DNA of 64,000 nt from Thermoplasmata archaeon (GTDB lineage Archaea > Thermoplasmatota > Thermoplasmata > Lutacidiplasmatales > UBA184). Position 1 is the stretch's first letter. Each line of letters begins with the position of its first letter. Where the stretch lies: positions 7,964-71,963 of the forward strand of contig JAKABH010000001.1 of NCBI GenBank assembly GCA_021801925.1, read 5' to 3'. Below the pieces are notes generated by a model, which had not been told where the DNA came from, ran no database searches, and was given only the letters and a program-made list of their open reading frames with translations. This document shows positions 26,340 through 54,719 of this stretch, one piece after another. Made by a program: the position numbers and the translations under genes.

Positions 26340-27311
26340 CTACTGGGCGGGCGAAGCGGCCGGCGGGGCGTGGCCCGTCCGCCAGAGGGTCGGATAGGCC
26401 GCCGGGTCGACGAAGACCCGGGTCCCTTCGACGACCCAGCCGTGCCGTACCTCCCCCATCTCTTTCGATCCCCGGCGCGCGAGGCCGGTGGCGATGAGCG
26501 TTCCGTCCCGCGTCACGAGCGCGACGCGGGCCCCGGCGGAGAACGGGGTCGGGAGCGCGAGGATCCCGCCCTTGGCGAGGCCGGCGCCGTGGGCAACGGC
26601 GCTCGCCGCCCCGTCCTTGAGGACGATCGTGGGAAACTCCCCCCAGACCTCGGCGATCGGATGCAGGAGCGCGAGCAGGGGGGCCGTCTCGCCCGATCGG
26701 GCGACGGCGACGGCGTCGGCCAGCGTCGTGAGCGGGACCGCCCGGCTCTCGTCGAACGGGCCGGTCCCGACCCGGCGCAGCTCCTCGAGGTGGCCGCCGG
26801 TGCCGAGCGCCTCGCCGAGATCGACGGCCAGGGTCCGGACGTACGTCCCCGAGTCGGCGGTGAGGTCGAGGAGGACCCGCGCGCCGTCGACCTCGACGAC
26901 CTCGAGACGGTGGATCGTGCGGACCCGACGCTCCCGCTTGACGGCGGAGCGGACCGGCGGGGTCTGGTAGATCGGGCCCGTGAACTCCCGCACAACGCGG
27001 TCGAGCGCGGGGCGCGCCACGGGGGCGTGGAGGTTGATCGCGGCGACGTACCGCTTCGGGAACTCGAGCACGAGCGGGAGGAGCTTCAACGCGGGGCCGA
27101 ACCCGACCCAGAGGAGCCCCGAGACGTTCGGGTCCAACGTCCCGGCGTGGCCCGCGAGCCGGACCCCGAGGAGGTCCCGGGCCCACGCGGTGACCTGGTG
27201 GGACGAGGGGCCTCGGGGCTTGTCGATGAGGAGGAACGCCCCGGCGGCGATCCGGGCCTCCACGTCCGGGGGGAGCGGCGGGGTCGGAGCGGCCCCCGCG
27301 GCGGCGCTCAC
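26340..27311 (-). CDS. cbf5: tRNA pseudouridine synthase Cbf5 (H/ACA RNP catalytic subunit, TruB family) with PUA domain
   Basis: LLIDKPRGPSSHQV, GHAGTLDPNVSGLL (catalytic Asp), C-terminal PUA (VVLKDGAASAVAHGAGL). Start taken as a GTG overlapping the cmk stop (GTGA); the track ORF extends further upstream. Confidence 0.85.
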   Translation of the reverse strand: MSAAAGAAPTPPLPPDVEARIAAGAFLLIDKPRGPSSHQVTAWARDLLGVRLAGHAGTLDPNVSGLLWVGFGPALKLLPLVLEFPKRYVAAINLHAPVARPALDRVVREFTGPIYQTPPVRSAVKRERRVRTIHRLEVVEVDGARVLLDLTADSGTYVRTLAVDLGEALGTGGHLEELRRVGTGPFDESRAVPLTTLADAVAVARSGETAPLLALLHPIAEVWGEFPTIVLKDGAASAVAHGAGLAKGGILALPTPFSAGARVALVTRDGTLIATGLARRGSKEMGEVRHGWVVEGTRVFVDPAAYPTLWRTGHAPPAASPAQ

Positions 27312-27853
27312 GGCCGCTCCGCGTCCGCCGCGCGCAGGAAATCGACGATCCGCCGGGTGACCTCTTCCGGCGGGAGCGCGGTCGAGTCGACCGACAGGTC
27401 GCACGGCTCCGAATCCGGATCGAGGTCGTAGAAGCGTCGGTACCGCGCCCGTTCGCTCTCCGCGCGCTCCCGGATCCGGCGGCGCGCTTCGTCAAGCGAC
27501 TGGCCGTCCCGCGCCGCGACCCGCCGCGCCCGCTCCGCCTCGTCGGCGGTGACGACGATCGCGTAGACCGGCGTGCCGCGGCGCCGGCAGAGCGCCGCCT
27601 GCACCCGCCCGTCCAGCACGAACCCGGGGCGGGCGAGGCGCTGCATCGCGTCGTCGAGCCCCCGGTCGACCTCGGGATGGCTCTCGGCGTACCGTCCGAA
27701 CGCCTCCACGTCCATCCCGCGGGCCCGCGCCTCCGCCCGGAACGCGTCCCCCGCCGAGCGGTAGTCGAGCGCGAGGGCCGCGGCGACCCGACGCCCCGCC
27801 GTCGATTTCCCGCTGCCCGGAGGGCCGCCGATCGCGACGACCCGCCCGATCAC
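27308..27853 (-). CDS. cmk: Cytidylate kinase (archaeal type)
   Basis: P-loop VVAIGGPPGSGKST. Short archaeal Cmk architecture. GTG start overlapping the upstream stop. Confidence 0.8.
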   Translation of the reverse strand: MIGRVVAIGGPPGSGKSTAGRRVAAALALDYRSAGDAFRAEARARGMDVEAFGRYAESHPEVDRGLDDAMQRLARPGFVLDGRVQAALCRRRGTPVYAIVVTADEAERARRVAARDGQSLDEARRRIRERAESERARYRRFYDLDPDSEPCDLSVDSTALPPEEVTRRIVDFLRAADAERP

Positions 27854-31518: not shown

Positions 31519-32448
31519 CTAGGCCCCTCCCGACGGGGGACCCCGTCGTCCCGGGCCGCCGCCCGCCGGCGGCGCTCCGGGGCCGCGACCCGGACCGCCG
31601 CGCCCCGGAGGTCCACCGCGCCCCGGGGGTCCGCCGCGCCCCGGGCCGCCCCGGCCCGGTCCGCCGCGCCCCGGCCCTCCGCGGCCGCGGCCACGGCCCC
31701 GGCCGCCCATCGGGCGGGCCCCTTCCTCCTTGGGGGGAAGGATCGACGTGCCGATCGGTCCGCGGACGATCTTGAGCCGCTCGGCGTCGGCCGGACGGAC
31801 CTTGAGCTCGGAGAGCGCCACCAAGGCGCCGTAGGCGGCCTGGGCGTAGTTGACGGTCGTCTTCGTGTGGCCGTCGGTGTACCCCCAGGCGTCGGTGATC
31901 CCCGCGAACCGGAGGACGGGCTTCGCCACGTCCCCGACCGCGAGCCCCACCCCGCGCGGGGCGGCGCGGAACTTCACGACGACCGAGCCGGTGTGGCCGA
32001 CGACCTCGAACGGGACGCTGTGCGGCCGCCCGCAGCCGCATTCCCAGCTGCCGCAGCCCCGCAGGACGGAGACGATCCCGAGCTTGGCGCGGTCGATCGC
32101 CCGGCGGATCGTCGGACCGACCTCGCGGCCCTTCGCCCGGCCGAGTCCGACGAAGCCGTCGCCGTTCCCGACGACGACCGTGACGGCGAACTTGAACCGG
32201 CGGCCGGAGTCGGTCATCCGCTGGACCATGTTGACGTCCAGGACCTCGTCGTGGAGACCCGGGAGGAGCTTGTCGACGATCTGCGGCTCGCGGAGCGGCA
32301 GGCCGGTGGCGAGCGCCTCGGCCATCGTCTTGATCTCGTCGGCCGCAACGCGCTTGCCGAGCTCCGTCCGCGGAACCCACGGCGGGGCGGGCGCGGCGCT
32401 GCCGAACCCTCCGGGCCCGCGGGACGGACCGGCGACCGCGCCGCTCAT
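31519..32448 (-). CDS. rps5: 30S ribosomal protein S5 (uS5) with ~75-aa C-terminal Gly/Arg/Pro repeat tail
   Basis: uS5 core ([33 protein letters not shown]) followed by [42 protein letters not shown]. Confidence 0.9.
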
Positions 32449-37433: not shown

Positions 37434-37873
37434 GCCGATCCCTCCCCCGGCGTCCGCGCCGCCGGGGCGGCGTCGTCGGCGAGCGGCGACGGATCCTCGC
37501 CCACGACCTTGCGGGCCGCTTCGCCGAGATCCTCGACAATGCAGAACGACACGAGCTTCGAGAGCGGGCGGGTCTCCGCGATGCGGACGCGGTGTCCGAC
37601 CGGAATGTTGAGGCACGGCGGGGCGTGCGCCAGGTAGCGCCGGCGCCGCTTCTCGTAGCGCTCGTACTTCGGCACGAAATGGAGGAGCGTACGCTCGACG
37701 ACGGCGGTGCGCTGCATCGCCGTCGAGACGACCGTCCCCTCGAGGACCTGGCCCCGCACGGGGAGCCGGCCGTGGAACGGGCAGTGCCGGTCGTCGCAGC
37801 GCGCCTTCGGGGCCCGGACGTCGAGACCGATGTCCCGGGCGCGGCGGGCGGACGGCGTACGGGTCGGACTCAT
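37430..37873 (-). CDS. rps17: 30S ribosomal protein S17 (uS17)
   Basis: [43 protein letters not shown]. Confidence 0.9.
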
Positions 37874-38193
37874 CGATACCTCCGAGGACCGCCGGCGAGG
37901 AGTCGCTTCGTGCGGTCTTCCGGGCGCACGCGAAGGACCTCGCCACTTAAGGGTAACTCTCGGCCGGCGAGGGCGATCGTACCGGCGAGCCGCCGCTTCG
38001 GCACGGCGACCGGTCGCGCGCGGCCGGCGACGCGGACCCAGAGCATCGAAAGCGATTCGTCGACGATCGTGCCGGCCACGGGCTCTTGGAGGCCGGGGCC
38101 GGCGGGGATGCGGACTTCGGCGCCGAGGATCTCCCCGGCGAGGGCGGTCCGCTCCGTCGGGCGAAGCTCGAAACCGATCGCGGCGCGCGCCAT
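37870..38193 (-). CDS. rnp1: Ribonuclease P protein component 1 (Rpp29/Rnp1, Sm-like)
   Basis: Conserved location between rpl29 and rps17 in archaeal r-protein operons. Sm-like beta pattern ([15 protein letters not shown]...[12 protein letters not shown]). Confidence 0.65.
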
Positions 38194-46702: not shown

Positions 46703-47338
46703 TTGCGGCGGGCGTTCGGGAAGCCGCACTTCCACGTCATCGGGCTGGACGACGGCGCGTTCCGCCGCGGGGACCGATGGGCGCCGGTCGCCGCCGTCCT
46801 GCTCGCCGTGCCGGCGCGCGTCGAGGCGATCCGGATCGGGCGGGTGCGCGTCGACGGAACGGACGCCGCGGAGGTCCTCGCGGCGCTCGTGAGCCGCCTC
46901 CCCGGCCGGGCGAGCGCGCGGGCGGTCCTGCTCGACGGGGCGGTCGTCGGCGGCTTCAACGTCGTCGACCTCGACAGTCTTCACCGCGCGCTCGGCGTTC
47001 CCGTCGTCGCCGTGACGGCCCGGGCGCCCGATTTCGGCGCGATCCGGACGGCGCTCGAGCGCGGGTTCCCCCGCGACGCGGAGCGGCGGTACCGGCTTCT
47101 TTCCGCGCACCGGCTCACCGCCGTTCCCGGCGCCGCCTCCCCCGTGCGGATCGCGGTCGTCGGCTGCCTCCGTGCGGAGGCGGCGGCGCTCGTGCGCCGC
47201 ACGATCGTCGAGGGCCACACCCCCGAGCCGATCCGCCTCGCCCACCTCGTCGCCTCGGCGGCGGCGCCCCCCTTGCCCTCGACACGAACCGTTAAGGAGC
47301 CCGTCCGCCGTCGTCCCCGGCGCGGGCCTGTAGCTTAG
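46703..47338 (+). CDS. DUF99-family protein (UPF0215, endonuclease-V-like fold)
   Basis: FHVIGLDDGAF...RIGRVRVDGTDAAEVLAALVSRL...LLDGAVVGGFNVVDLDSLHRALGVPVVAV. TTG start inferred; the 3' end overlaps the tRNA-Arg 5' end. Confidence 0.6.
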   Translation: MRRAFGKPHFHVIGLDDGAFRRGDRWAPVAAVLLAVPARVEAIRIGRVRVDGTDAAEVLAALVSRLPGRASARAVLLDGAVVGGFNVVDLDSLHRALGVPVVAVTARAPDFGAIRTALERGFPRDAERRYRLLSAHRLTAVPGAASPVRIAVVGCLRAEAAALVRRTIVEGHTPEPIRLAHLVASAAAPPLPSTRTVKEPVRRRPRRGPVA

Positions 47339-47430
47339 CTCGGACGAAGCACTGGCCTTCTAAGCCAGGGAACTCGGGTTCAAAGGCCGGGGCGGCCCCC
47401 CCGCCCCGGCAGAGACTCCCGACAGGCCCG
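47324..47430 (+). tRNA. tRNA-Arg (anticodon TCT) with a putative 32-nt intron in the T-loop (between positions 59 and 60)
   Basis: Acceptor GGGCCTG/CAGGCCC (7 bp), D-stem GCTT/AAGC, anticodon stem CTGGC/GCCAG with loop CTTCTAA, T-stem TCGGG/CCCGA, T-loop TTCAAA[...]T. The insertion 47385-47416 (GGCCGGGGCGGCCCCCCCGCCCCGGCAGAGAC) contains a 10-bp GC hairpin. No encoded CCA. Confidence 0.6.
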
Positions 47431-53299: not shown

Positions 53300-53977
53300 C
53301 TACAGTGCTTCGAGACGTTCCAAGAGCGCCGGCGCCTGCAGCGGCGTCGACAGCAGGGGGATGTTCTCCACCTCCGAGAGGCGGATCGCGAGCGGGTCGA
53401 CCCGGCCCGGCGCCGCGAAGACGACCGCCGCCGGCTTGAGCGGATGGGCGCGGATGGCGACCATCGGGGAGCGGCCGAACTTCACGTTGGAGAAGATCAA
53501 CGCCCGCTGGGTCGTCCAGCCGTAGACCTCGACGAACCGCGAGGCGTCGATGGAGAGGATCGCCCGCGGCGCGTCGAGCACGGTGAAGCCGTGGAGGTCG
53601 CGGTGGAGGTCGACGCGGCTCACGGGGCGGGCGTCGAGCTGGTCCGCGAGCGACTTCAGCGGGATCGCGACGGCGAACTCCCGCATCCCGAGGATCCCGT
53701 CGGAGTGGGCCCGTACGCCGAGCCGCTGCCCGACCTTGCTGCCGTGCTGGGCGTCGACGGCGAGGAGGGCATCGACATACCGCCGGATGAAGCCGGCGCC
53801 CGGGCTCGCCCGCCGCTCCGACTCGTAGTCGGAGATCACCGACGGCACCGTCGTGAGGTGCTGGGCGAGGTCCCGCTGCGAGATGCCGAAATCCTCGCGC
53901 CACTTGCGGAGCGTGCGCCCCGGGTGGGGGGACAGGACGACCTCCCCCGCGATCTTCTCGCGGATCTCCGCGTCCAC
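53300..53977 (-). CDS. XRE-family HTH transcriptional regulator with ~140-aa C-terminal effector domain
   Basis: HTH_XRE ([34 protein letters not shown]). GTG start. Directly upstream of the HMGS-thiolase-DUF35 module on the same strand. Confidence 0.6.
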
Positions 53978-54007: not shown

Positions 54008-54070
54008 GCCTAGGCTTGCTGTCGGTGTACGGGCTCGACAGCCGCCGAACCCTCTCCCGGCCGGGAGGAG

Positions 54071-54175
54071 TGGACTGGGCGAGATTCCCCGGCCCGGGGC
54101 GTGCGGCCCCGGGACCCTTTGAACTCGCGACCTCTACCTTGCCAAGGTAGCGATCTTCCGCTGATCTACCAGCCC
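54071..54175 (-). tRNA. tRNA-Ala (anticodon GGC) with G3:U70 identity pair and a putative 33-nt T-loop intron
   Basis: Minus-strand sequence GGGCTGGTAGATCAGCGGAAGATCGCTACCTTGGCAAGGTAGAGGTCGCGAGTTCAAA[GGGTCCCGGGGCCGCACGCCCCGGGCCGGGGAA]TCTCGCCCAGTCCA. All four stems pair, anticodon loop is TTGGCAA, and the acceptor 3' strand CCAGTCC gives the G3:U70 wobble. Confidence 0.6.
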
Positions 54176-54362
54176 ACCGGTCGGTCGGACGCCCGGTGCA
54201 GGATAAAATCTTCTCGGCCGCCGCCCCCGCCCGGACGGCCTCGGGTGGCCGCGGCCCCGGGGCGCTCCGTCCGGGGCCGCATCGGGGGCCGCTCCCGCCG
54301 ACCGGCCCTCGACCGGACGCTCCGGCCAAACCCTTATCCCTCGCCGCCGGCTCCGCCGGCCG

Positions 54363-54719
54363 ATGCCCGAGAGCGGCTCGAGCGAGCCGATCGACCTGGT
54401 CGTCCGGAGCGCCCGCGACCTGTTGCGGCCCGAGGAACTGCTGCGCGAGGCGACGCGCGATCTTGTGAAGGAGGAGATCCGCCACCACCTGGAGAAGACG
54501 CTCCGGGACGATCCGAAGCTCGCCCGGGACCTGCGCGACGCCGTCCGGGACCTCTTGGAGGCGCGCGCGCGGGAGTATGCGGCGGTGCTGCGCGTCGGCG
54601 CCGCGACCGCCCGGCTGGGCCTCTCCGCGCTTCCCCCCGACGTGCGGCGGTCGCTGACCGAGGACGTGGTGAAGTTCCTCTCCCAGGAGATCGGCAACAT
54701 CGCGGAGCGGACGCTCTAG
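54363..54719 (+). CDS. Small all-helical hypothetical protein (118 aa), probable partner of the downstream PAC2-family protein
   Basis: Charged heptad-like helices (LLREATRDLVKEEIRHHLEKTLRDDPKLARDLRDAVRDLLEARAREYAAVL). Stop lies 2 nt before the PAC2 start. Confidence 0.5.
   Translation: MPESGSSEPIDLVVRSARDLLRPEELLREATRDLVKEEIRHHLEKTLRDDPKLARDLRDAVRDLLEARAREYAAVLRVGAATARLGLSALPPDVRRSLTEDVVKFLSQEIGNIAERTL

Follow-up and report, generated by a model that had tools for sequence, protein, structure and literature searches.

A tRNA-Ala(GGC) gene with a probable bulge-helix-bulge intron in the T loop, at position 59/60, in high-GC Thermoplasmata

The window analysed here (the whole stretch of DNA, 64,000 nucleotides long) very probably carries a functional, single-copy-type tRNA-Ala(GGC) gene of high-GC soil Thermoplasmata whose T loop is interrupted by a protein-spliced bulge-helix-bulge (BHB) intron between standard positions 59 and 60. 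We base this assignment on the comparison of sequences. A preliminary description had placed a minus-strand tRNA-Ala(GGC) in a gap between protein genes, and all of the elements that it named were recovered, namely G3:U70, the D stem GAUC/GAUC, the anticodon loop UUGGCAA, the T stem GCGAG/CUCGC and the GC hairpin. The gene is laid out as follows:

54175..54071, minus strand: tRNA-Ala(GGC) gene, a complete class-I tRNA with one interruption, read from the sequence
54118..54175, minus strand: exon 1, 58 nt, standard positions 1-59 without position 17
54123-54118, minus strand: end of exon 1, T-loop bases U54 U55 C56 A57 A58 A59
54085..54117, minus strand: intron, 33 nt between positions 59 and 60, GGGTCCCGGGGCCGCACGCCCCGGGCCGGGGAA
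54071..54084, minus strand: exon 2, 14 nt, consisting of U60, CUCGC, CCAGUCC and the discriminator A73

The 5′ half of the tRNA comprises the acceptor strand GGGCUGG, UA, the D arm GAUC-AGCGGAA-GAUC and a single G. The middle contains the anticodon arm CUACC-UUGGCAA-GGUAG (anticodon GGC), the variable region AGGUC, the T-stem strand GCGAG and UUCAAA. The insert is followed by U, CUCGC, CCAGUCC and A, and CCA is not encoded in exon 2. The predicted exon-exon junction joins ...GCGAGTTCAAA to TCTCGCCCRGTCCA. The 105-nt RNA folds with a z of −4.1 relative to shuffled sequences.

ARAGORN, run on the window, does not call the tRNA-Ala gene, and the Rfam tRNA model matches only its 5′ part (54175-54120), with 29.1 bits, barely above the gathering score of 29. 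Both results would fit a non-functional locus, either a decaying tRNA pseudogene or a gene disrupted by insertion (e.g., a mobile-element remnant or an integration scar). When the 33 nt are removed in silico, ARAGORN calls a 72-nt tRNA-Ala(ggc) with its 7-nt T loop restored. The tool also mishandles a second gene of like design, a tRNA-Arg(UCU) with the following layout:

47324..47384, plus strand: exon 1 of tRNA-Arg(UCU), 61 nt, with the 3′ end TTCAAA
47385..47416, plus strand: intron of tRNA-Arg(UCU) at 59/60, 32 nt
47417..47430, plus strand: exon 2 of tRNA-Arg(UCU), consisting of U60, CCCGA, CAGGCCC and G73

ARAGORN makes a single call in the window, for a 78-nt tRNA-Arg(tct) at 47324-47401 (plus strand), and this call is wrong: intron bases are taken as a false 3′ half, in place of the 3′ strands of the T arm and acceptor stem, and the true gene ends at 47430. 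Spliced in silico, the gene is called as a 75-nt tRNA-Arg(tct), again with a 7-nt T loop. ARAGORN lengths for the orthologous tRNA-Arg genes range from 74 to 80 nt because intron sequence serves as the false 3′ half. With introns allowed, ARAGORN produced numerous calls in this GC-rich DNA whose introns would measure hundreds to thousands of nucleotides, and we judged these calls to be false positives. Common tRNA finders thus overlook the essential tRNA-Ala(GGC) and mis-call tRNA-Arg(UCU), and genomes of this lineage, which is abundant in acid soils and peat, can therefore look as if they were without a decoder for a very common codon.

The orthologues argue against a non-functional locus. 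A scan of species-representative genomes gave 80 loci from UBA184 / Lutacidiplasmatales-like Thermoplasmata, among them UBA184, UBA61 and a ‘Candidatus Lutacidiplasmatales’ MAG. The interrupted tRNA-Ala(GGC) is present in all 80 (counting the copy in L049, truncated where its contig ends), and at least 120 metagenome contigs carry it too. In the species loci it sits 100–200 nt upstream of the regulator gene and is always interrupted after TTCAAA. We aligned 80 distinct tRNA-Ala sequences (A1) and 51 distinct tRNA-Arg sequences (A2). Exon columns are nearly invariant in both alignments, while the neighbouring regulator protein differs by up to ∼19% across the 80 species and by up to ∼29% in the metagenome loci. 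In A1 all cloverleaf stems are 100% paired, which speaks against relaxed constraint, and the alanine identity set is complete, with G3:U70 in 80/80 and an invariant anticodon GGC and A73. Every exon 2 column is invariant except the partner of position 5. Here the acceptor pair 5:68 is C:G in 76 sequences and U:A in four, including that of the window, a compensatory change that spans the intron.

The gene is also preceded by a conserved promoter:

54203..54216, minus strand: tRNA-Ala promoter, with a TATA box TTTTAT at 54208-54203 (−33 to −28) and a purine-rich BRE-like GAGAAGA just upstream

Among 165 distinct orthologous upstream sequences, A/T reaches 87–97% at −31 to −29 against a background of ∼15–20%. 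The conserved TATA element spans −31 to −28, with the core motifs GTTTAT, ATTTAT and GCTTAT. A conserved TATA element ∼30 nt upstream supports the predicted transcription of the minus strand. A scan of the window for bacterial promoters and terminators found nothing, as expected for an archaeon.

Codon usage indicates a demand for the tRNA. In eight window genes GCC makes up 193 of 398 alanine codons, roughly half, so a tRNA with the anticodon GGC is needed. The same genes use AGA for none of their 210 arginine codons, and tRNA-Arg(UCU) thus serves a rare codon. An intact allele of tRNA-Ala(GGC) is absent from the metagenome collection, though GCC is a major codon: a spliced 40-mer representing the intronless allele had no match in 241 million metagenome records. 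By comparison, tRNA-Ala exons separated by a gap of 8–38 nt gave at least 120 metagenome matches, with inserts of 27–36 nt and none shorter among the matches listed. The intron therefore appears to be fixed in the lineage. Given in addition the precise structure and spacing of the insert (described below) and the like design of tRNA-Arg, we consider a pseudogene or disrupted gene extremely improbable. The preliminary description had likewise argued for genuine T-loop introns over decayed pseudogenes, and it is strongly supported by the constancy of the exons, the covariation of the hairpin, the BHB core common to both inserts and the conserved TATA element.

The insert itself behaves quite differently from the exons that flank it. 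It is 28–35 nt long in A1 and different in nearly every species, and its length spans 27–36 nt across the species genomes and the metagenome matches listed. Positional statistics for the Ala intron were drawn from 80 + 108 distinct orthologous introns, the 108 coming from metagenomes. RNAalifold recovers a consensus hairpin from the divergent Ala inserts of A1. Compensatory changes on both sides occur at 9/9 hairpin pairs in Ala and 9/10 in Arg, and the observed covariation scores were reached by 0/500 column shuffles. Paired cells amount to 94% (Ala) and 95.7% (Arg), compared with 32–54% (Ala) and 32–53% (Arg) when the partners are slid by 1–3 columns. The loop sequence of the hairpin and the length of the insert drift freely, and the structure is kept. 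Drift can also be seen among near-identical strains. L002 (2804-2907) and L004 differ from window positions 54085-54117 by a 1-nt deletion in the intron hairpin (GGGTCCGGGG versus GGGTCCCGGGG), and the regulator protein and tRNA exons are identical; the difference is evidently population-level indel drift in the intron.

No C/D-box guide RNA and no group I/II core was found in the insert, which is 27–36 nt long and lacks a conserved loop sequence. Rfam finds only tRNA in the tRNA-Ala region apart from a weak match to the C/D-box sRNA sR40 (54059-54114, plus strand; 19 bits against a gathering score of 50, E = 0.22). This match lies on the strand opposite the tRNA-Ala intron, scores below gathering and was treated as chance.

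The spacing of the insert is that of an archaeal splice motif. Exactly 7 nt per strand separate the T stem from the first pair of the inner helix h′ in 163 of 167 Ala sequences and 62 of 64 Arg sequences. The seven on the 5′ strand are U54 U55 C56 A57 A58 A59 and the first intron base; those on the 3′ strand comprise a first group of four intron bases, a further two intron bases and U60. Each set of seven accounts for four helix positions and one 3-nt bulge, the 3-4-3 spacing of the archaeal BHB motif. In the window the Ala intron divides as follows:

54117, minus strand: i1 (G), third base of the 5′ bulge
54116-54091, minus strand: i2-i27, GC hairpin h′
54090-54087, minus strand: i28-i31 (GGGG), H strand facing A57, C56, U55 and U54
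54086-54085, minus strand: i32-i33 (AA), first two bases of the 3′ bulge, of which U60 is the third

Both 59/60 and the canonical intron position 37/38 lie six bases after a 5-bp stem, making 59/60 the T-arm structural counterpart of 37/38.

The intron strand of the central helix H is constrained in the way that pairing would require. In the 80 Ala sequences, the intron base facing U54 is G in 48 and A in 32, and the base facing U55 is A in 67 and G in 13. The base facing C56 is G in 80/80 Ala and 51/51 Arg sequences, and the pairs with U54, U55 and C56 are kept in 51/51 Arg sequences. A57 faces G in 78/80 Ala sequences and in ∼97% of high-GC sequences, with which it forms no standard pair. 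The 51-sequence Arg set and the 108 metagenome Ala introns repeat the same H-strand constraints. A ViennaRNA fold of the T arm plus intron does not predict helix H and leaves a 7 × 7 internal loop in its place. As thermodynamic folding does without this short helix, we relied on spacing and covariation instead.

These constraints bear on whether the insert is removed at all. It always forms a stable hairpin, as would be expected if it were kept and the mature tRNA carried an extra hairpin arm out of its T loop. The T loop of tRNAs has a conserved 7-nt fold and contacts the D loop, and an arm of 28–36 nt would break both the fold and the contact. Moreover, the conserved insert positions are exactly those that pair with U54-C56 and set the two 3-nt bulges, whereas insert length and loop sequence drift freely. 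Conservation only where the motif is built points to a splice motif and not to an arm, and we regard a retained arm as very improbable.

The motif in the window departs from the strict BHB form. U54 and U55 each face G, C56 pairs with G, and A57 faces G. A57 is unpaired in 79/80 Ala and 51/51 Arg sequences. With A57 facing G and only three standard pairs, the motif is near-canonical and not strict 3-4-3. Three contigs of lower GC content (57–60%) show its strict counterpart in the 3′ halves of their tRNA-Ala(GGC) genes:

L138:7445-7518, minus strand: 3′ half of tRNA-Ala(GGC) on a lower-GC contig
L159:518-591, plus strand: 3′ half of tRNA-Ala(GGC) on a lower-GC contig
L091:6205-6280, plus strand: 3′ half of tRNA-Ala(GGC) on a lower-GC contig

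Each carries a 34–36-nt intron at 59/60 whose 3′ end reads ...UGAG-AC/AU, with UGAG facing UUCA and a U opposite A57. This U pairs with A57 to give a perfect 4-bp central helix, and thus a strict hBHBh′ in the same register. Their inner helix contains AU pairs (UGAAG.../...CUUCA). These contigs have no adjacent homologue of the regulator; their neighbours are a PCNA-like gene, a thiolase gene and a KaiC-like gene. For the thiolase, identity to any named protein stays below 67% (‘Euryarchaeota archaeon’, 65%; ‘Thermoplasmata archaeon’, 55–59%). Contigs with another neighbourhood share the intron, which may accordingly predate the Lutacidiplasmatales-like group or extend beyond it.

The strict motif of the low-GC relatives sets the register and the splice point at 59/60. 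The Ala intron of the window ends in AA, so junctions at 57/58, 58/59 and 59/60 would give the same mature product; the putative junction is placed at 59/60 by the orthologues and the motif geometry. The registers 57/58 and 58/59 were rejected, as they need G53 in the central helix, break the T stem, and fit only loci whose intron ends in A.

The tRNA-Arg(UCU) intron follows the same plan. It consists of G, a hairpin GCCGGGGCGG-CCCC-CCGCCCCGGC, the H strand AGAG and a final AC. Its exon 2, TCCCGACAGGCCC, is identical in 51/51 orthologues, with a discriminator that is G in 50 and A in one. The two inserts had been described as sharing both position and length; the position, 59/60, is indeed the same, and the lengths agree only approximately (33 nt in Ala and 32 nt in Arg). 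A common BHB core, which had been suggested as a point to check, was found: its 5′ end reads G-G and its 3′ end C-G-G-R-R-A-N, with G-R-R pairing with C56-U55-U54. The Ala and Arg introns are alike only at these motif-determined ends. Similarity between them is not significantly greater within a genome than between genomes (permutation p = 0.076), and we see no sign of recent copying from one to the other.

A splice-and-rescan search for a third tRNA with a 59/60 intron over 2.26 Mb of sequence gave Ala and Arg only. Two further matches, with ‘introns’ of 58 nt and 67 nt, are implausible and were taken as chance. Uninterrupted tRNAs do occur in related loci (Met(CAT) in L035 and Arg(CCG) in L154), and so not every tRNA of these organisms is disrupted. 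Both 59/60 introns appear to be old and fixed across the lineage. The lack of intron loss could reflect retention by selection, for example if the intron shields part of the T arm from integrating elements.

The surrounding DNA is unremarkable for its presumed host. Lutacidiplasmatales are the TMEG group of acid soils and peat, with a GC content of ∼69% and genomes of ∼2.1 Mb (PMC9287336). The G+C content of the window is 67–77%. The HTH regulator adjoining tRNA-Ala (53300-53977, minus strand) has an identical counterpart among the proteins of MAG GCA_027377315.1 and shares 79–91% identity with proteins named ‘Thermoplasmata archaeon’. The window also encodes a nuo operon, topoisomerase VI, a CysRS-like enzyme, an MMPL transporter, Cbf5, Cmk, SecY, a large ribosomal-protein operon, a mevalonate-pathway trio and a PAC2 protein, and is ordinary archaeal core genome. 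On the far side of the tRNA gap, what had been described as a ‘PAC2 pair’ is instead one PAC2 protein and an uncharacterised 118-aa ORF (54363-54719, plus strand). This ORF is divergent from tRNA-Ala, lies immediately before the PAC2 gene and has no Pfam match; its position is conserved in related contigs. In L004 (1-3000), as compared with L001-L003, a 271-aa PAC2 gene is missing between an aminotransferase gene and the 118-aa ORF, and the upstream region carries an isocitrate/isopropylmalate dehydrogenase gene instead, a local rearrangement beside the tRNA-Ala locus.

Three further genes of the window were noted. A 107-aa ORF between the L29 and S17 genes of the ribosomal-protein operon (37870-38193, minus strand) has a weak match to the RNase P/MRP subunit p29 (23 bits, below the Pfam cut-off of 27). 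The interval between L29 and S17 is the usual archaeal place of p29, a tRNA-processing protein. The ribosomal protein S5 gene (31519-32448, minus strand) encodes 309 aa, with the S5 N- and C-terminal domains at residues 65–215, preceded by ∼64 residues and followed by ∼95 unmatched C-terminal residues. A Cbf5-type pseudouridine synthase (26340-27404, minus strand) with TruB_N, TruB_C_2 and PUA domains is encoded downstream of SecY and Cmk. SecY-Cmk-Cbf5 is the usual archaeal gene order, and the Cbf5 family is known to act on T-loop U55 in archaea; nothing ties this Cbf5 to the introns.

We propose the following course of events for the tRNA-Ala intron. The gene would be transcribed from its own TATA/BRE promoter ∼30 nt upstream. 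In the precursor, the T stem (49-53:61-65) would form the outer helix h, U54-U55-C56(-A57) would pair with intron G-R-R(-G) to form the central helix H, and the GC hairpin of the intron would form the inner helix h′. The 5′ bulge would consist of A58-A59 and the first intron base, and the 3′ bulge of the last two intron bases and U60. EndA, the presumed splicing endonuclease, would cut after the second base of each bulge, that is, after A59 and before U60. An RtcB-type ligase would then join the exons and restore the 7-nt loop UUCAAAU, which presumably folds and is modified thereafter. We infer cleavage, ligation and the order of the steps by analogy with established archaeal tRNA introns (PMC4090602, PMC3239211).

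Gene annotation of the window with Pfam, tblastn with the M. jannaschii EndA (100% identical to PDB 1A79) and an HMM of five EndA catalytic domains run against all ORFs of 208 loci and the window revealed no EndA gene, either in the window itself or in the 2.26 Mb of related loci. ‘Cluster II’ Euryarchaeota, Thermoplasmata included, are reported to have only α′2-type endonucleases, which are strict for BHB motifs (PMC5829648, PMC4090602). A variant of the splicing reading would accordingly invoke a real intron processed by a non-standard EndA of broadened specificity, with a specificity loop or another subunit type. The A·G opposition at A57 in ∼97% of high-GC sequences would fit such an enzyme, and the literature ties non-canonical introns to EndAs with extra loops and lists Thermoplasmata as having the strict α′2 type (PMC5829648). 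The 3-4-3 spacing is nevertheless intact and the low-GC relatives carry the strict motif, and an ordinary enzyme may therefore suffice. In addition, BHB recognition by archaeal EndA does not depend on the mature domain of the tRNA (PMC3239211). We hold a broadened EndA to be possible yet rather unlikely.

We put forward a wider proposal only tentatively and with doubt: that an order-level Thermoplasmata lineage keeps two ancient, fixed introns at 59/60 in which the motif departs systematically from the strict form (A57·G). If true, either α′2 endonucleases tolerate an off-site, imperfect BHB in vivo or the specificity of the endonuclease broadened independently in this lineage; the latter would add another, independent example to the known coevolution of tRNA genes with their endonuclease.

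Position 59/60 is listed among the non-canonical intron positions (PMC4090602), so the kind of intron found here is known. One close parallel is ARMAN-2 (Ca. Micrarchaeum acidiphilum), which has 59/60 introns in pre-tRNA-Cys(GCA) and pre-tRNA-Pro(GGG), that of pre-tRNA-Cys being cleaved in vitro by its own ε2 EndA (PMC3239211). The insertion point is the same, the splice motif is likewise built on the T stem, and the motif of ARMAN-2 tRNA-Pro is a strict hBHBh′ (PMC3239211). However, the ARMAN-2 tRNA-Cys intron is 13 nt long with a relaxed hBH that lacks an inner helix, whereas the Thermoplasmata introns measure 27–36 nt, include both bulges and form a long inner hairpin. The hosts differ as well: ARMAN-2 belongs to DPANN, has an ε2 enzyme and has 56% of its tRNA genes disrupted (PMC3239211), whereas at least two other tRNA genes are uninterrupted in loci related to the window.

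A second comparison is with the introns of Thermoproteales and other Crenarchaeota (Marck & Grosjean 2003, Sugahara 2008 and Fujishima 2010, as summarised in PMC4090602). As far as that summary goes, these are also protein-spliced BHB introns at many positions including 59/60, with intron sequence that is free outside the motif, and standard finders likewise miss or mis-call the genes (PMC4090602). By the same summary they occur alongside (αβ)2 endonucleases, in genomes with many introns and with recent transposition between tRNAs; the Thermoplasmata introns, in contrast, show no excess within-genome similarity (p = 0.076) and appear old and fixed. tRNAscan-SE 2 models non-canonical introns mainly from Crenarchaeota and Thaumarchaeota (PMC8450103), and the paper describing Lutacidiplasmatales does not mention tRNA introns (PMC9287336).

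Relative to a 5-bp stem and a 7-nt loop, the canonical 37/38 intron has an identical geometry. In both, the stem of the arm serves as the outer helix, the intron pairs with four bases of the loop, the cut falls six bases past the stem and the next loop base becomes the third base of the 3′ bulge. The two differ in that the 37/38 intron interrupts the anticodon arm and the Thermoplasmata 59/60 intron the T arm, where the pairing loop bases U54-U55-C56-A57 are universally conserved, such that only the intron strand can vary. The distinct intron variants, ∼190 for Ala and 64 for Arg, form a natural data set on what the presumed splicing enzyme tolerates: three pairs plus A·G, a fourth bulge base of any kind and hairpins whatever their sequence. 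With them, one enzyme and one substrate would suffice for a direct test of the proposed coevolution of intron position with endonuclease specificity. New relative to these known systems are the lineage that hosts the introns, their apparent fixation across the order in two tRNAs, and the A57·G that is conserved. Stable non-canonical introns are thereby extended to a euryarchaeal group for which the reviews consulted describe only canonical 37/38 introns and strict endonucleases.
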